The position numbers and the translations under genes were made by a program. From Escherichia phage A7_1, in sequence record OP795442: a stretch of DNA of 64,000 bases, one strand, 5' to 3'. Position 1 is the first letter of the stretch, and each line of letters opens with the position of its first letter. Under the pieces are notes generated by a model. That model was not told the origin of the DNA. It did not search any database and worked only from the letters and a program-made list of their open reading frames with translations. Shown here one piece after another: positions 3,058 through 20,658 of this stretch.

Positions 3058-3675
3058 TTGCAAAACGAATCGTTCAGTGTTAAAATAAATATCACGGGAG
3101 CAATGATGGAAAACATTACTATCTCCGACCTTCCTTCACAAACCTATCTGTCCCGAATCCAAAAGGGACGGGCTGTGAAAAAGGCCAATGAGCTACTTAA
3201 ACAGGGCTTCAATAAAGAGGCTTCTATTTCTGGAGCCATTGGCTCCGTTCTTGTCCAAAAAGCTGCACAGAAAGAAGAGATGATTTCTTACGAGATCATT
3301 TACGAACCTGATACGCCGGATGCTCATGGACAATGGATGAGCAAAGAGACACTAGTTAAAGCACAACAAGATTTCAAGAAAGCTCAAGAAATCGGTGCGG
3401 TAACTGAGAACTTGTACCACTTGGTTGATACCGAAGCATTCAAGATCGTAGATCATTGGATTCAGCCAGAAATTGATGTAACTGTCACACAAACAGGAGA
3501 AATCATAAAAGCAGGATCATGGGTAGCAAAGGTTCAATATTCACCTGAAGCATGGGAGTTAAAGAAAGCTGGCATCGTCGGTGGATTATCTCTTCAGTGC
3601 GGTGGTATGTTGAATGAGGAAACAAATGAGCTATCCGATCTTGATTTCAGTATCGAATTGGAAGAGGAAGAATAA
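3058..3675 (+). CDS. head morphogenesis protein (possible prohead protease)
   Basis: ORF between portal and scaffold, the protease slot in lambda-like head gene order. No catalytic motif recognised. Start ambiguous (TTG 3058 or ATG 3103/3106 after GGGAG). Confidence 0.45.
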   Translation: MQNESFSVKINITGAMMENITISDLPSQTYLSRIQKGRAVKKANELLKQGFNKEASISGAIGSVLVQKAAQKEEMISYEIIYEPDTPDAHGQWMSKETLVKAQQDFKKAQEIGAVTENLYHLVDTEAFKIVDHWIQPEIDVTVTQTGEIIKAGSWVAKVQYSPEAWELKKAGIVGGLSLQCGGMLNEETNELSDLDFSIELEEEE

Positions 3676-4789: not shown

Positions 4790-5221
4790 ATGGCTAAAGC
4801 ACATGTTGTAACTCTCGAAGGTAACTACTCTGATATCGTACTGGGCCGTGTTGTTGCATTTGGTGACACTGGTTGGAACTTTGAAGAAGTAGAAATGGAT
4901 TATACTGCTGATCTGGTCGCAGGTCTGCTGGTTAAAGCTGATGGTACTCCGGCTGCTGTTGCAGACGCTGCTGACGTTTACGGTGTTCTGGTTGACCGTA
5001 AAGTTCTGCCTGGTGTTACCAAGCATGACGGCGCTACCCCGATGGCTGGTGAGAAGCTTCCTATGACTATCGCTGTTCGTGGTCTGACCCTGAACGCAAC
5101 CAAACTGGTCTACGCTGATGGTACTGTAATTGACGCTGCTGGTAAACTGGCTCTGTCTAAAGCTGGAAACCAAGTGACTGACCGTGTAGTAGCTACCGAA
5201 TTCCTGGGCGCTGTCCTGTAA
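4790..5221 (+). CDS. putative head decoration / capsid-associated protein
   Basis: 143 aa ORF immediately upstream of the major capsid gene (position of lambda gpD); highly biased codon usage suggests high expression. Confidence 0.45.
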   Translation: MAKAHVVTLEGNYSDIVLGRVVAFGDTGWNFEEVEMDYTADLVAGLLVKADGTPAAVADAADVYGVLVDRKVLPGVTKHDGATPMAGEKLPMTIAVRGLTLNATKLVYADGTVIDAAGKLALSKAGNQVTDRVVATEFLGAVL

Positions 5222-5244
5222 CTTTTTCGAAGGAGAATATTTAA

Positions 5245-6240
5245 ATGCATAATGGTGATTTTCAAATCCTGGATTACACTGGCCTGATCTCTACTCTGCC
5301 GCGTGTTGATACCCTGCTTCAAAGCATGAACCTGTTCACTGAGAACTTTGGTCGTACCACTATCGCTAAAATCGAACGTCGTGATGACGGTGCTGGTCAG
5401 ATCAATGCTGTACAGCGTGGTAGCGTTCGTCAGCACCTGGGTAATGATCGTAAAAAGATCGTCAACCTGAATATCCCGTTCTTCCCTCTGGACCGTTCCA
5501 TTGACCGTGCTGATATCCAGAACTTCCGTGAATTCGGTACTGAAAATGCTCCGGCAACTGTTGAAGCTGAAGTAGCTCGTCACCTGGCTCGTATCCGTCG
5601 TAGTCATGCGGTTCTGAAATCCAAGGCAATGTACGCTGCTCTGAAAGGTACTTCCTGGTCGCCAAATGATCCGGTTTGTGATTACGACTACTACGATGTT
5701 TGGGGTGTAACCCAGCAGACTGCTGATGTTGACTTCACCTCTCTGGCTGTTGACCCGATTGAAGTGCTGGAAGCTGAAGCTCGTGCACATATCATCGATT
5801 ACGCAGGTGATCAAGGCGACAACTACGAGATCGTTGTTATGGCATCCCGTCAGTGGTTCTCTGCTCTGATTTCTCACCCGCAGGTAACTGGTGCATACTC
5901 TCAGTATCCGTCTACTCAGGAAATCCTGCGTCGTCGTCTGGGCGGTAATGCTAATAACCGTATCTTCGAACACAAGAACATCCTGTTCATCGAAGACATT
6001 TCCGGTAACATCCCTGCTGGTGAAGCATACATCTTCCCTCGTGGTATCGATCGTATGTTCGAAATCTATTACGCGCCGAGCGACACTCTGGAAGGTGCTA
6101 ACCAAGTAGCTCAGGAACTGTATGTATTCTTCAAAGAATCTCAGTACCTGCGTGAAGCGAAGATCGAATCTGAAACTTCCTTCCTGACTGTTAACAACCG
6201 TCCTGAACTGGTAGTTAAGTCTGTTGGTAAGTTTGAGTAA
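5245..6240 (+). CDS. major capsid protein (lambda E-like)
   Basis: 331 aa, strong RBS (AAGGAGA), strongly optimised codons, followed by a strong terminator; position after scaffold and decoration genes. Confidence 0.75.
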   Translation: MHNGDFQILDYTGLISTLPRVDTLLQSMNLFTENFGRTTIAKIERRDDGAGQINAVQRGSVRQHLGNDRKKIVNLNIPFFPLDRSIDRADIQNFREFGTENAPATVEAEVARHLARIRRSHAVLKSKAMYAALKGTSWSPNDPVCDYDYYDVWGVTQQTADVDFTSLAVDPIEVLEAEARAHIIDYAGDQGDNYEIVVMASRQWFSALISHPQVTGAYSQYPSTQEILRRRLGGNANNRIFEHKNILFIEDISGNIPAGEAYIFPRGIDRMFEIYYAPSDTLEGANQVAQELYVFFKESQYLREAKIESETSFLTVNNRPELVVKSVGKFE

Positions 6241-15458: not shown

Positions 15459-16874
15459 ATGGCTTATGAAGATAAGGTAGTTGACGTCGAGGTAACGCTT
15501 GGCACTCAACCTATTGATACCGTAGGGTTTGAAACCCCAATGTTCTTAGCAGTACACAATAATTTCCCTGAACGTCTCCGTCTGTACGGATCTGTGGAAA
15601 GTCTGGTTGGTGATGGATTTGCAGTTGGGTCCGCAGCATATCAATTCGCATCCAATGCATTTGGTGGGTCTTTTGCCCCACAACTGGTAGCAATTGGTCG
15701 TATGTCCATGTCTGGTTCTCGAATCGACTTCACAGGCACTACCAATACCGAGCGTGTTGTGGTAAACATTACTATCAATAAGGTGGTAAAGGCAATAACT
15801 ATCACGATCAACCCTGGAAACACCCCTGGTCAGATCGCAACTGCTCTTGCAGAAGGTATTAACAATGATGTAGATTTGGCTGGTCGCGTTACTGCAACTG
15901 TTGAAGGCAGTACAGTCGTAGTTGTGCAATCCGCAGAGATTATCAGTGTAGGTAAAGGCGAAGGTAGCTACAAGATTGTAAACACCTCTGTTGAAACTGT
16001 TGCAACTGTTCTTCCGCAGGTACTTGCTGAAAACCACAACTGGTACTTCCTGTCTCACGAACAACGTTCTGATGCAGATATCGTTGCAGCGGCTGAATTT
16101 GCACAAGCTAATTACAAACTGCACGTATATAACTCCAGTGACAGCGATGCTCTGGCAGCAGCTAACCAAAGCGCTTCTGTGTTTGACACTCTGAAAGCTC
16201 TGGGTTACAACTCTTTAGGGACTTACGACAAAGAAGCGGATGTAGAATTCACCGAAGGTTCTGTTATCGGCGCAATGGCTGCTAACGATCCTTCTTACGG
16301 TGACTCTATTCACCTGAAGACAATGCCTGGCATGAAGCCTTCTACGATTTCCGAAACTCAGCGTAGCAACGCTTGGGGACGTAACGCAAACATCTATCGT
16401 GCAATGTACGGCACTAACAGCTACATCGAAGGGCGTACCTCCAGCGGTCAGTATGTTGACGTTATTCGTTTCTCCCATTGGCTGAAATTCCGCATGGAAG
16501 AATCTGTATTCGGATACATGAAGCGTCGTTCTGATCAAGGCCAGTCCATGAAGATGAGTGATGAAGACCTTCCGGTTCTGCGATCTATCCTGTTTAATAA
16601 CCCAATCAACATCGGTATTCGTAATGGTGGCATTCTGACTGGTTATGACACAGTGAACCGTGTTAGCTATGATCCGATTATCACCATTCCTCGCCGTGCT
16701 GAAATCCCAAGTAATGACTTAGCTAACCGTATTCTGCGTGATGTTAAAGTTGAAGTGGTTTACAACAACTCCCTGCACTACGTTAAAATTCGCGCTGCTG
16801 TTGTTCTGGATCGTCCGCAAAACACGACCCAAAGCACTCAGACTCCTTTCACTAACTCTACTGTAGGGGTGTAA
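15459..16874 (+). CDS. putative tail sheath protein
   Basis: 471 aa ORF immediately upstream of a 160 aa tube-sized gene, chaperone pair and tape measure (myovirus order); biased codon usage. Confidence 0.6.
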   Translation: MAYEDKVVDVEVTLGTQPIDTVGFETPMFLAVHNNFPERLRLYGSVESLVGDGFAVGSAAYQFASNAFGGSFAPQLVAIGRMSMSGSRIDFTGTTNTERVVVNITINKVVKAITITINPGNTPGQIATALAEGINNDVDLAGRVTATVEGSTVVVVQSAEIISVGKGEGSYKIVNTSVETVATVLPQVLAENHNWYFLSHEQRSDADIVAAAEFAQANYKLHVYNSSDSDALAAANQSASVFDTLKALGYNSLGTYDKEADVEFTEGSVIGAMAANDPSYGDSIHLKTMPGMKPSTISETQRSNAWGRNANIYRAMYGTNSYIEGRTSSGQYVDVIRFSHWLKFRMEESVFGYMKRRSDQGQSMKMSDEDLPVLRSILFNNPINIGIRNGGILTGYDTVNRVSYDPIITIPRRAEIPSNDLANRILRDVKVEVVYNNSLHYVKIRAAVVLDRPQNTTQSTQTPFTNSTVGV

Positions 16875-16877
16875 TAG

Positions 16878-17360
16878 ATGGCACTGAATCCTAAGTTAAT
16901 TAGTCTCCAGGCATACGACCCAGCGAAGGTTCTGATCTTCATCGGCGGTCAACGTGTTTCTGGATTTGCCGCTGATACGAAAGTTGTTGTTTCTCGTAAC
17001 AACGATAACATTACCCCGCTGTCTGGTGTTGATGGTGAAGTAAGTTCGGCTATCGTTCGCGACAACTCTGGTGTAGTAACTATCTCCTTGCAGAATACTT
17101 CTGTATGGAACGGTTATCTTTCCCAATGGCAGTTGCAAGCCCGTCTGACCGGACTTGTTTACTTCCCAATCCAGATTGAAGGTTCTCAGGGTCTGTCCTT
17201 GAACACCTTTGGTTGGATTCAACGTCAACCAGACCTGACCTATGGATCTGAAGTAGGGCAGATGGACTGGGAAATCGGCGTTGTCGATGCACAACTGAGT
17301 GCTGACCAGATTCAGGGTGTTGCTGCCGGAATCGGTGGAATCCTCGGTCTGGATCAATAA
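16878..17360 (+). CDS. putative tail tube protein
   Basis: 160 aa ORF between the sheath-sized gene and the chaperone pair. Confidence 0.55.
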   Translation: MALNPKLISLQAYDPAKVLIFIGGQRVSGFAADTKVVVSRNNDNITPLSGVDGEVSSAIVRDNSGVVTISLQNTSVWNGYLSQWQLQARLTGLVYFPIQIEGSQGLSLNTFGWIQRQPDLTYGSEVGQMDWEIGVVDAQLSADQIQGVAAGIGGILGLDQ

Positions 17361-17440
17361 TTACGTGAGCCTCAAGGATGAGGCCCTTCTCACGCAATGG
17401 ATGATATTCATATTAACAAAGTGGACACAGGAGTGTAAAC

Positions 17441-17911
17441 GTGCAAGGTTTTAAATTTAAAAAGACCACAGAGATTACTCTTTGCGGCGGTAAGCGATTC
17501 ACAATCTATCATTGGTCACCTACTCAAGTTATCCGTAATATGCCTAAGATTGGTAAACTGGTAGCTGTTCCTTTGGGCACGATGGCAGGTTCTGCTATTT
17601 CCGGTGGACAAGATTTTCAAGACGCTGTACCAACAGCAATTCTCTACATCTTAGATCGCATAGATGAAGGTGGTCTGGAAATTATTAATCTTCTGTTGGA
17701 AGGTGTAGAAGTAGACAACATGGGTGGCCCTATTGATATAGACGAAGTGTTCGATGGTCACGTAGAAGATTTGTTTAAACTGCTGGCAGAAATTATACAG
17801 GTGAACTACGGCTGTTTTTTCGGCAAGAGCGGTTTCGGGACAATCGAAAATCTCCTTCAGAAGTTCGGTCTGGTTCGCAAGGTGGACCAACTGGATCAGA
17901 CGGAAGCCTGA
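17441..17911 (+). CDS. tail assembly chaperone (G-like, frame 0 product)
   Basis: 156 aa ORF directly upstream of the tape measure gene; contains slippery heptamer T-TTT-TTC near its 3' end. Confidence 0.6.
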   Translation: MQGFKFKKTTEITLCGGKRFTIYHWSPTQVIRNMPKIGKLVAVPLGTMAGSAISGGQDFQDAVPTAILYILDRIDEGGLEIINLLLEGVEVDNMGGPIDIDEVFDGHVEDLFKLLAEIIQVNYGCFFGKSGFGTIENLLQKFGLVRKVDQLDQTEA

Positions 17912-18177
17912 GGCCGCTGAGTACGGTGGAAAGGGCCTTGGAGTATTGTAGGAAAAACTCCAGTCTGAAATGGTATGACTATCTTTATTTCCGTGTCATG
18001 GAGAAATTCAAGGGAGTTAATGAACTTTCTATTGAAAGTGGGGACATGGAAGACCTTCTTAAGAAAAATGAATATATAGATATTCAAGAATATTTGGAAG
18101 GTGTTCAAGAGAAAGAGAAGGAATACGAACGCCAGCGAATGGAACAACAAGAGGCCCAGTTAAAACGGAGAAAGTAA
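17441..18177 (+). CDS. tail assembly chaperone frameshift fusion (GT-like), predicted
   Basis: Frame 0 up to 17820 joined by -1 slip to the frame of ORF 17926-18177; about 245 aa. Conserved G/GT arrangement upstream of tape measure genes. Confidence 0.45.
17815..17821 (+). other. putative -1 programmed frameshift slippery site (TTTTTTC)
   Basis: X-XXY-YYZ heptamer in the chaperone frame (codons TTT-TTC = FF); the -1 frame stays open from 17821 to the stop at 18177. Confidence 0.5.
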
Positions 18178-18185
18178 ATAAATAG

Positions 18186-18220
18186 GGCTGGAGTCGAAAG
18201 ACTCTGGCCTTTATTTTTAT
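18186..18220 (+). terminator. rho-independent terminator (attenuator before tape measure)
   Basis: GGCTGGAGTC-GAAA-GACTCTGGCC hairpin (two G-U pairs) followed by TTTATTTTTATT. Confidence 0.55.
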
Positions 18221-18234
18221 TATGAGGAGTCAAA

Positions 18235-20658
18235 ATGGCTGTTGAAGTAATTGCAACAACAAAGAACCGTGTCATATTTGAAACTGACAAAGGTTCCTAT
18301 CGAAAAGCTCGTGAAGAGATTCGAAAACTCTCTAACGAATGGAAAAAGGCTTCAACAGAGGCTACTGCTGCCGGAAAGAATTCTCCTGCTGAGGCTTATA
18401 AACAATCTGCCCGTGAAATGCGATTAGTCAGTAAACGTTTGGAAGAAACTCGCAAACGTGAAGAGAAGAAAGCGACAGATTATCGTATTGCTCTGGCAAA
18501 GAAAGAAGCCAAGGCAAAGGAAGCGATCCAAAAGGTTTCTGCTGCAAAAATACGACAACAGGTTAAAAGCCTGACGGCTGCATCCCCTGGTTCTGCTGAG
18601 ATGAGAAAGTTCTATCAGGAACAGGAGAAAGCTGCCCGTGCTGCTGCAAGATCTGCAAACCGTACAGCGACACCTTTACCGCCTTTCAACATCCAACGTG
18701 TGGAAGCTGCAAATCAATTATTATCTCGCGGTAACAGAGAGCCAGGGTCAGGTATTGTTGGAGATCCTAATAGCCGATTCAACCCTGATTTAATTGCTGC
18801 ACAAAACAGAGCGATGCAACGTAGTTCTCGTATCAAAGAGAGAATGCAGAAGCAACAAACTCAAGAACAGGAACGTGAACGTGTCCGCGCTGCTCGTGCT
18901 GCTGCCCGTATTGATGATGTTACAGCACAACAACGTATTCGTCTATCCTCTCGATATGGTCGTGGTTATGCAGGTGCTTTGGGTCGTGATTCAGAGGGTC
19001 GTGGGATTGAAGATCTTAATAGACAATTCCGTGCGGGTACATTATCATCTGGACAATATCGACAAAGTGTTCAGGCACTCGAAAGACAATTTCGCGCCGC
19101 ACAATCAAGTGCTGGGTCTTTCTCTTCTACGTTGAGAGATATTCGTTCTAACTTGGTAAGTGCTACGGCTGCATATGGTGTTTTCTCCGCAGGTGCATCA
19201 ATCACTCGTCAAGGTCAATTCTTCGAAGGTATTAATGCAACCTCCTTGCTGATCTCTGATTCAGCAGAAGAGGCTGGTCAGCGTGTTAAGTTTGTTCGTG
19301 ACGAAGCATACCGTTTAGGTTTGGATCTGAAAACTGCATCGCAGGGATTTACCCAGTTAGCGATCTCTGCTGATGGTGTTATTAGTAAATCTCAAACAGA
19401 CGAATTATTTAGTGCATTTTCTGAATATTCCACCGCACTTCAGGTCGATCCCGTAAGATATCAGCGTGGCATTACAGCAATTCAACAGATCCTTGGTAAA
19501 GGTCAAGTAATGGCTGAAGAACTAAAGGGTCAGTTGGCTGAAGCAATTCCTGGTTCTTTACAGGTATTCTTGAAAGCAACTCAAGAAGCATTCGGCGACA
19601 CCTCTATCGACATTGCAAAATTGTTGAAGTTGATGGAAGATGGTGAATTGAAAGCCTCCAAGATCATACCCCTGGTTGGAAAATACTATGCAGAAGCTGC
19701 TAATAAGGGTGGCGCACTGGATAAAGCTTTAGAAAGTAACCGTGTTGCTTACCAGCGTTTAACTCAGACTTTTGCAGAGTTTCAAAACAGAATATTCCAA
19801 GGTGGCTTTGGTGAACAACTGACAAGAGTTTTCAATAACTTAGCTACAATCCTATCAAGCAATGGTAACGTTGCAAGCACCATCGGTAGATTCTTCGGTA
19901 ACGTAATTGAAGGATTTACAGACATGGTTCTTGAAATACATGATAACCTTGTCCTTTTGGATCGTGTGGTGTCTTATTACTTCAAGAAAATAGGTGTTGA
20001 AGGTGATACTCTTCGTCAAGTGTTTGATTGGGGTTCTTATCTCCTTGGTATCGGATTGTTCCTCGGCGGTCTAACTAAAGTGTTTAATATCCTAGCTAAG
20101 ATTGCAGGATTAAAAGGTGCACTTAAGGAGATTCGTGGAACCCTTGGTGGAGATTTAGCTACGGGTGGAAAAACCACAACTGGTGCAAACACTACAGCCT
20201 CTGGTGGCGCAACTACCCCAGGTAAGACAAGTGTAGCTGGAAGATTCAGTCAACTTGGTAAGCTTGGTAAGCTTTTTGGCCTTGGTACGCTTTATTCAGC
20301 AGGGTCAGAAATCAATGACCGCTTTATCCAAAGTGGAGAGAGCCGATTGGCTGGAGCAGGGCTTGACGCAACAGCTTTCCAGCAGCAATATGGTGTAACT
20401 CCACAACCTGTCGGGTTAACTGATGTGTTCAGAGAGTTGTTTGGTGGCTCTCGTGACATAACTGTAGATCCTAACACTATCTCGACTCCATCTGGTATTC
20501 GCCCTAGCGGATTTCCTCTGGAAACTCCAGCAGCACCACCTGAAGGTAAGATCACCGTTGAGATCAAGAGTGGAGAGATTCGTCAATATATCCGTGCAAT
20601 TGTGGATGAAGAGAACGGATTCAATATCAACCTGCTCACTCAGGGTGGTAACCAATAA
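18235..20658 (+). CDS. tail tape measure protein
   Basis: 807 aa, Ala/Arg/Gln-rich helical N-terminal region and Gly-rich hydrophobic segment; directly downstream of the frameshifted chaperone pair. Confidence 0.8.
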   Translation: MAVEVIATTKNRVIFETDKGSYRKAREEIRKLSNEWKKASTEATAAGKNSPAEAYKQSAREMRLVSKRLEETRKREEKKATDYRIALAKKEAKAKEAIQKVSAAKIRQQVKSLTAASPGSAEMRKFYQEQEKAARAAARSANRTATPLPPFNIQRVEAANQLLSRGNREPGSGIVGDPNSRFNPDLIAAQNRAMQRSSRIKERMQKQQTQEQERERVRAARAAARIDDVTAQQRIRLSSRYGRGYAGALGRDSEGRGIEDLNRQFRAGTLSSGQYRQSVQALERQFRAAQSSAGSFSSTLRDIRSNLVSATAAYGVFSAGASITRQGQFFEGINATSLLISDSAEEAGQRVKFVRDEAYRLGLDLKTASQGFTQLAISADGVISKSQTDELFSAFSEYSTALQVDPVRYQRGITAIQQILGKGQVMAEELKGQLAEAIPGSLQVFLKATQEAFGDTSIDIAKLLKLMEDGELKASKIIPLVGKYYAEAANKGGALDKALESNRVAYQRLTQTFAEFQNRIFQGGFGEQLTRVFNNLATILSSNGNVASTIGRFFGNVIEGFTDMVLEIHDNLVLLDRVVSYYFKKIGVEGDTLRQVFDWGSYLLGIGLFLGGLTKVFNILAKIAGLKGALKEIRGTLGGDLATGGKTTTGANTTASGGATTPGKTSVAGRFSQLGKLGKLFGLGTLYSAGSEINDRFIQSGESRLAGAGLDATAFQQQYGVTPQPVGLTDVFRELFGGSRDITVDPNTISTPSGIRPSGFPLETPAAPPEGKITVEIKSGEIRQYIRAIVDEENGFNINLLTQGGNQ

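Follow-up and report, generated by a model that had tools for sequence, protein, structure and literature searches.

Is the short open reading frame (ORF) that separates the tail assembly chaperone gene of Escherichia phage A7_1 from its tape measure gene a small gene in its own right, or is it the distal half of a longer chaperone that is reached only when ribosomes change frame? We address this question in a 64,000-nucleotide stretch of sequence record OP795442, referred to below as the window, and all positions are those of the window unless a different record is named. By its sequence, the phage is a Vequintavirinae-like E. coli myovirus, and at the chaperone region it shares 98% identity with phages A5-4, W70, and A73. 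An earlier model-generated description of the locus, here called the sequence-only reading, had proposed a -1 programmed frameshift in the chaperone pair, and this proposal is supported by the conservation of the arrangement among relatives, by invariant synonymous sites at the slip site, and by the lack of a conserved start codon for the downstream ORF. We consider it very probable that the slippery heptamer T_TTT_TTC directs a programmed -1 ribosomal frameshift of the G/GT type.

The slip site and the fusion it would produce

Both ORFs named in the sequence-only reading exist, the chaperone at 17441-17911 (GTG start, 156 aa) and the downstream ORF at 17926-18177 (83 aa), and the second occupies the -1 frame of the first (17441 mod 3 = 2, 17926 mod 3 = 1). 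The heptamer at 17815-17821 likewise lies in the chaperone frame as described, reading across codons TGT (17813-17815), TTT (17816-17818), and TTC (17819-17821), with the T run at 17815-17820 and the C at 17821. The -1 frame had been given as open from 17821 to 18177, which is correct but understates its length, as it is open from 17779, directly after a TAA at 17776-17778, to the stop at 18175-18177. A shift must fall within 17779-17911 because only there are both frames open, and T_TTT_TTC is the sole in-frame heptamer inside this overlap. The proposed coding sequence (CDS) would be join(17441..17821,17821..18177), and its translation gives 127 + 118 = 245 aa, in agreement with the fusion of about 245 aa that had been predicted. 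Its placement immediately upstream of the tape measure gene also holds, with the tape measure start at 18235 (phrog_5255, TMP_3). The locus shows every feature of the G/GT class that can be looked for in sequence.

U_UU.U_UU.C, an H_HH.U_UU.Y motif, is among the most efficient -1 motifs in E. coli, where the U_UU.C tetramer ranks second only to A_AA.G (PMC4066793, Sharma et al. 2014). In the mechanism we propose, most ribosomes would translate 17441-17911 and release the 156-aa chaperone, while a minority would pause with one tRNA-Phe on UUU in the P site and another on UUC in the A site of U_UUU_UUC. Both tRNAs would then slip back one base onto UUU_UUU and re-pair in the new frame, and translation would restart at CGG (17821) in the -1 frame and stop at 18175-18177. 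The resulting 245-aa fusion would join chaperone residues 1-127, through a flexible linker, to a conserved domain of about 85 aa at its C terminus. On the model of lambda gpG/gpGT, the N-terminal part shared by both products would coat the tape measure protein and the C-terminal domain of the fusion would recruit the tube protein, with the slip rate setting the ratio of short and long products. The sequences show the anatomy of the locus, its homology and conservation, the suppressed synonymous change, and a downstream domain without a start of its own; that slippage occurs, how efficient it is, what the products do, and whether AGGUGA or a downstream helix (see below) stimulates it are points that we infer.

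The -1 frame from 17821 to 17913 encodes a low-complexity linker rich in Gly, Ser, and Arg, and the conserved domain comes next. The tryptic peptide across the fusion junction would be LLAEIIQVNYGCFFR, and its zero-frame counterpart is LLAEIIQVNYGCFFGK. The linker peptides SPSEVR and SGSQGGPTGSDGSLRPLSTVER are encoded 5' of the GTG at 17926, and only a frame change yields them.

Two other possible slip sites were considered and set aside. T_TTG_GGC at 17572-17578 is in frame at chaperone codon 45 but lies far outside the -1 overlap; it reads TTTGGGT in A5-4 and LTH01, is missing from more distant relatives, and is presumably without function. The U_UUC tetramer at 17833-17836 might serve as a minor site, although re-pairing is impossible at its P-site codon. 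This tetramer is in frame within GGTTTCG (17831-17837), 10-16 nt 3' of the heptamer, a string that is invariant or nearly so across very divergent lineages, that specifies Gly-Phe when read in the zero frame but Arg-Phe-Arg when read in the -1 frame, and that is also part of the 5' arm of the helix proposed below.

Conservation of the site among related phages

In the long ORFs of the 64-kb window, in-frame X_XXY_YYZ heptamers occur at a rate of 0.0030 per codon, and 0.13 would be expected by chance in the 44-codon overlap. Chance is thus not negligible, a single genome alone proves little, and conservation across relatives is decisive. The combination of a long -1 extension and an in-frame heptamer is found in one other ORF of the window, at 5110-6105 on the minus strand (331 aa, TTG start, in-frame T_TTA_AAT, 114-codon -1 extension). 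This ORF is the antisense mirror of a plus-strand 331-aa ATG ORF at 5245-6240, and it is probably non-coding and no second frameshift site.

All 50 related loci with a readable site retain an in-frame slippery sequence within the -1 overlap, and this set spans Vequintavirinae genera, Stephanstirmvirinae, Aeromonas Plateaulakevirus, FelixO1-like Ounavirinae, six metagenomic lineages, and Pseudomonas phage KIL4. In all relatives examined, the -1 frame extends 74-98 codons beyond the zero-frame stop. The first 16 relatives, which include rV5, CR3, CR9, SSE121, Av-05, Klebsiella Mydovirus, and Erwinia Henunavirus, as well as two Stephanstirmvirinae (about 27% chaperone identity) and Aeromonas Plateaulakevirus, have an in-frame heptamer in a -1 ORF that reaches 80-98 codons beyond the stop. 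The same arrangement recurs in 19 further IMG/VR contigs (a twentieth ends before the stop), in the six metagenomic lineages, and in three FelixO1-like Ounavirinae. Its conservation extends from relatives with 98% chaperone identity to those with about 27% and further, different heptamers included. T_TTT_TTC itself is present in 15 of the first 16 relatives, the exception being Vibrio phage 193E37-1, which carries the canonical heptamer A_AAT_TTT at roughly the same position. In Rheinheimera phage Barba8S the heptamer is G_GGA_AAG, as in lambda, and the downstream domain is 42% identical to that of the window, while the site of Pseudomonas phage KIL4 is G_GTT_TTT, which falls short of a full X_XXY_YYZ heptamer.

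Synonymous change is suppressed at the site. Synonymous codon identity at the three heptamer codons is 1.00 (222 comparisons, 13 lineages), and elsewhere in the same 13 lineages codon identity amounts to 0.445 for the chaperone gene upstream, 0.83 over the six codons that follow the heptamer, and 0.61 over what remains of the overlap. Directly before Phe-Phe the base is T, irrespective of whether the codon specifies Cys (TGT), Ser (AGT), or Pro (CCT).

Several of the related records have features of separate interest. In Rheinheimera phage Barba8S, an HNH endonuclease gene on the opposite strand separates the chaperone pair from the tape measure gene (1728-2366 of our locus L037). In KIL4 (our locus L039, slip site at 3543-3549), two "structural protein" ORFs that precede the tube gene are separated by endonuclease genes, one of them SegH-like, at 495-1211, and the sheath gene of this phage could be split by homing endonucleases. 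About two dozen "Campylobacter phage" records of the MG0656xx series (A12a, A141, C12, C14, and others) contain rV5-like or phi92-like chaperone, tube, and T-domain sequences, with match statistics equal to those of E. coli phages, and their Campylobacter host labels look doubtful.

The downstream T domain and its start codons

The aligned -1 frame products of the relatives share a short RFR motif, a Gly/Ser/Arg-rich linker, and a conserved block, PLSTVEkALEYaRKNSSLkWYDYL..., which we refer to as the T domain. The linker varies in both length and sequence and never contains a stop codon, and the T block starts directly after the zero-frame stop. Upstream of this block the aligned relatives have no conserved start codon. 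In CR3, F4M1E, and phiTE no in-frame ATG, GTG, or TTG precedes the Met of "RVME", well inside the T block, and in VLCpiM5a and our locus L029 none precedes the Met of "ADM", half way into the domain. GTG 17926 is a possible start in A7_1 that is not conserved in its relatives. Judged from these alignments, the downstream ORF is not an independent gene.

Public annotation treats this region unevenly. The T domain was found by tblastn in 357 phage records and is a "hypothetical protein" or unannotated in all 60 of those listed, and in GenBank and RefSeq the annotated starts of the relatives' downstream ORFs are inconsistent and cut into the conserved domain. In rV5 (NC_011041), gp050 (1563-1931 of our locus L003) is annotated as an ORF that overlaps gp051; since it starts 3 nt before the heptamer, the annotators of this phage caught the entire open -1 frame with the frameshift unrecognised. 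We found no joined CDS in the Vequintavirinae-like records whose feature tables were inspected. No fused protein was found when 5.8 billion proteins were searched with the 245-aa fusion; the 45 matches are all chaperone-only, with lengths of 153-161 aa and query coverage of at most 54%. A PDB sequence search gave no match below E = 0.3, and a single-sequence AlphaFold model of the fusion had a pLDDT of 40.6 and was unusable.

Weighing ribosomal slippage against other explanations

If the locus instead held two separate genes, the downstream ORF would be translated from GTG 17926 or ATG 17998, and the heptamer would be a by-product of a Cys-Phe-Phe peptide. Every inspected Vequintavirinae record does carry a separate small "hypothetical protein" (in A5-4 with the start equivalent to ATG 17998), and GAGG is found 12 nt upstream of GTG 17926. 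This arrangement is difficult to reconcile with annotated starts that vary among relatives and truncate the conserved domain, with several lineages that have no in-frame ATG, GTG, or TTG before mid-domain, and with a -1 frame that is open back to the heptamer in every lineage despite an unconserved linker. The synonymous positions of the heptamer are also invariant, and two lineages swapped in another heptamer rather than just keeping the peptide; we regard two genes as highly improbable. A coincidental heptamer and open frame, or a sequencing indel that splits one gene, would be less surprising in a single genome, given the 0.13 heptamers expected in the overlap. The same stop and the same -1 relation recur, however, in dozens of phages and metagenomic contigs that were sequenced independently, and the only comparable ORF in the window is the antisense mirror described above. 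The comparative data have effectively refuted chance or artefact, to which we assign next to no probability.

Transcriptional slippage would reach the same product by a different route, with RNA polymerase adding one U or dropping two in U6 so that some mRNAs encode the fusion directly. The site is a homopolymer of six T, and the conserved T before Phe-Phe fits a need for run length as well as it fits tRNA re-pairing. On the other hand, the run is of six only, whereas bacterial RNA polymerase generally slips efficiently on runs of about 8-9 residues or longer, and the run always holds the X_XXY_YYZ register. The homologous sites A_AAT_TTT, G_GGA_AAG, and G_GTT_TTT (KIL4) are not homopolymers, and they are good or plausible motifs for tRNA slippage. 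We favour ribosomal over transcriptional slippage because of these heptamer swaps in the Vibrio and Rheinheimera phages and the G_GTT_TTT of KIL4, and consider slippage by the polymerase very unlikely as the source of the fusion.

Some points weigh against a programmed ribosomal frameshift here, in addition to those given below for its candidate stimulators. The run of six T could permit slight transcriptional slippage, and GTG 17926, with GAGG 12 nt upstream, could permit some independent initiation of the 83-aa product. We found no experimental evidence of a fusion for this phage or for any Vequintavirinae phage, and the rV5 proteomics paper is silent on the chaperone genes and on a frameshift.

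Candidate stimulatory elements

Two elements that flank the heptamer may stimulate slippage. Upstream, AGGUGA is complementary to the anti-Shine-Dalgarno (anti-SD) sequence and pairs with the 3' end of 16S rRNA at -8.4 kcal/mol, which places it in the top 4.3% of gene windows. Of 25 lineages, 14 have an equivalent element of -6 kcal/mol or lower at this position, the Certrevirus group lacks it, and the conservation of AGGUGA is confounded by an overlapping conserved L/Q-E/Q-V peptide.

Downstream, the sequence-only reading had called for a search for a stimulatory stem-loop or pseudoknot, and folding predicts a helix that starts 6 nt downstream of the heptamer and is not conserved family-wide. 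The fold of 17822-17920 has a minimum free energy (MFE) of -38 kcal/mol (z = -2.7), as good as which are 2 of 200 shuffles, and is closed by a 12-bp helix between 17828-17839 and 17907-17918, the duplex of which alone has -19.4 kcal/mol. The helix topology is the MFE or centroid structure in most non-rV5 Vequintavirinae, and the 3' arm likewise lies at stop + 2 nt in most members of this group. Three fully complementary arm states occur (AGCGG:CCGCU, GACGG:CCGUC, and GGCGG:CCGCC), and in a 22-sequence alignment 76% of cells pair, as opposed to 25-36% with the partner slid. RNAalifold on 18 relatives returns exactly the outer 5 bp, with 2 covarying pairs. On all 22 sequences it returns no consensus structure, for which the misplacement by MAFFT of the 3' end of the rV5 and ABPH49 rows is part of the cause. 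A permutation over the 9 distinct arm states gives a P of only about 0.04-0.05, and Rfam covariance models have no match at an E of 1 or better in 17600-18300.

Against a stimulatory fold stand its pair probability, which drops from about 1.0 in the local fold to 0.10 once 600 nt of context are included, the folding z-scores, which are near 0 in most relatives, and the absence of the helix from the rV5 clade, ABPH49, and our locus L047. The candidate stimulators are not universal. We do not claim a conserved stable fold, because the z-scores are unremarkable in most relatives. As stimulators, the helix and the upstream AGGUGA are weakly supported, and the helix is a lead and not a finding. That the frameshift is tuned by a conserved long-range helix whose 3' arm holds or abuts the zero-frame stop, perhaps together, in many lineages, with an anti-SD element 10-13 nt upstream, is a tentative idea that we think is probably wrong, although not far-fetched. 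If it were true, the locus would have a dnaX-like three-part signal with the chaperone's own stop codon inside the stimulator, and termination in the zero frame would be coupled to the fold that sets the slip rate of following ribosomes. The potentially new part could only be this combination of a long-range helix that contains a stop codon with an upstream anti-SD match.

Gene order and features of the locus

The plus strand carries, in order, the sheath gene, the tube gene, the chaperone gene, the small -1 ORF, and the tape measure gene (Table 1). The position of the tube gene matches that of the tube gene in related annotated phages. The ORF at 17441-17911 is, by its profile matches, a genuine tail assembly chaperone, with Pfam PF21822 Phage_TAC_15 at 7.9e-22 (78.6 bits, cut-off 22) and phrog_3840 "tail assembly chaperone" at 2.9e-63, and its GTG start is preceded by GGAG at 17430-17433. 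Between the fusion stop and the tape measure start there is a terminator-like hairpin, and the rV5 record has a rho-independent terminator annotated at the equivalent place. Partial termination at this hairpin might reduce expression of the tape measure gene relative to the chaperones.

Table 1. Coordinates of genes and sequence elements at the chaperone locus of phage A7_1, with the basis of each assignment
Feature	Position	Strand	Basis or remark
Tail sheath gene	15459-16874	+	phrog_205, E = 4.5e-106
Tail tube gene	16878-17360	+	phrog_280 at 1e-38; Pfam PF11681
Tail assembly chaperone ("G"), 156 aa	17441-17911	+	Pfam PF21822 Phage_TAC_15, phrog_3840
Permissive overlap, zero and -1 frames both open, 44 codons	17779-17911	+	translation of -1 frame
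Anti-SD-complementary AGGUGA, candidate upstream stimulator	17799-17804	+	10 nt upstream of heptamer
Slippery heptamer T_TTT_TTC	17815-17821	+	in-frame X_XXY_YYZ register, codons 126-127
-1 part of predicted fusion, 118 codons and stop	17821-18177	+	open -1 frame
5' helix arm (AGCGGUUUCGGG), candidate	17828-17839	+	begins 6 nt after heptamer
3' helix arm (CCUGAGGCCGCU), candidate	17907-17918	+	contains chaperone stop UGA 17909-17911
Conserved "T" domain (PLSTVERALEYCRKNSSLKWYDYLYFRVMEKFKG...)	17914-18174	+	phrog_10409 at 6.5e-23
Small ORF, 83 aa	17926-18177	+	-1 frame; phrog_10409 (unknown function)
Terminator-like hairpin and T run	18184-18221	+	12-bp stem, 6 GC pairs, tail TATTTTTATT
Tape measure gene	18235-20658	+	phrog_5255 at 2.3e-290; Pfam PF20155 TMP_3

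Consequences for annotation

The locus is very probably a further instance of the known G/GT kind, unannotated in the records of this phage group that were inspected, and it changes no concept. Its value is mainly a correction of annotation to join(17441..17821,17821..18177), since in the inspected Vequintavirinae and Stephanstirmvirinae records the downstream part is entered as a separate "hypothetical protein" with inconsistent starts, and many of the phages concerned are candidates for therapy or biocontrol. The homologous slip site (N-Y-G-x-F-F on GTTTTTTC) spans FelixO1-like, rV5-like, phi92-like, and Aeromonas myoviruses, with a GTTTTT variant in KIL4, and the natural heptamer swaps within one family provide a clean argument for tRNA slippage.

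Comparison with known frameshift systems

The founding tail chaperone frameshift is that of lambda gpG/gpGT, described by Levin, Hendrix and Casjens in 1993 and by Xu, Hendrix and Duda in 2004. The lambda slip site is reported to need no strong stimulator. In lambda, a -1 slip near the end of the first ORF yields a fixed small fraction of fusion (review PMC5009743). As in the window, two overlapping ORFs separate the tape measure gene from the major tail gene, but lambda is a siphovirus with the heptamer G_GGA_AAG, and the likeness is one of architecture and presumed logic. The G/GT class is further defined by a short product in excess at a fixed ratio, by a C-terminal domain that binds the tube protein, and by two products that tail assembly requires and that virions lack. 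A lambda-type heptamer does occur among the relatives of the window, in Rheinheimera phage Barba8S.

A different comparison, of how the signal would work, can be drawn with the tau/gamma frameshift of E. coli dnaX. A dnaX-like signal has an SD-like element about 10-14 nt ahead of the heptamer and a stable RNA structure that begins 5-9 nt after it, and the window offers candidates for the same three parts: an anti-SD-complementary hexamer 10 nt upstream, the heptamer, and a predicted helix from 6 nt downstream. The dnaX heptamer is A_AAA_AAG and that of the window U_UUU_UUC, and where dnaX has a compact hairpin, the window has a predicted long-range helix around a domain of about 90 nt. The two flanking elements of the window are candidates that are not conserved family-wide.

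Literature searches found no paper or record that describes a frameshift for Vequintavirinae. Two apparent precedents were rejected: a Klebsiella paper that mentions "peptides that suggest frameshifts" concerns T4-like phages and not Vequintavirinae, and the "frameshift" of the KIL phage paper refers to poly-G tracts. Closer to the present case, a conserved -1 frameshift at an invariant GTTTTT has been proposed for the chaperones of Vandenendeviridae (Pseudomonas phage Adele) and Andersonviridae (PMC12846349, 2025), and the same study names these families as structurally related to Vequintavirinae. Its scope is Vandenendeviridae and Andersonviridae, not Vequintavirinae, yet the locus and the argument, from a -1 frame that every genome keeps open across the entire locus, are the same, and TGTTTTTTC of the window contains its GTTTTT motif. 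The tube protein of the window matches a Pfam family named after Pakpunavirus KPP10.

The nearest annotated counterpart is in the FelixO1-like Ounavirinae phages Michonne and Moogle, which have a homologous chaperone with T_TTT_TTC near its 3' end. Their chaperone is shorter (about 133 aa, compared with 156 aa in the window) and too diverged for a tblastn match to the window chaperone at 1e-3, the heptamer is 36-51 nt away from the zero-frame stop and not 87, and, unlike in the window, the fusion stop overlaps the tape measure start with no terminator-like hairpin between them. As in the window, the heptamer of Michonne lies at N-[YF]-G-x-F-F, with an rV5-like tube gene on one side and the tape measure gene on the other, and the sheath and tube genes of this phage are labelled "rv5 Orf53/52 like". 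An SD-like GGAGG is located 11 nt upstream of the Michonne heptamer. In RefSeq, the "tail assembly chaperone" of Citrobacter phage Michonne is a joined CDS, annotated with "ribosomal slippage" at an in-frame T_TTT_TTC, and the paper announcing its genome states a -1 frameshift (PMC4591319).

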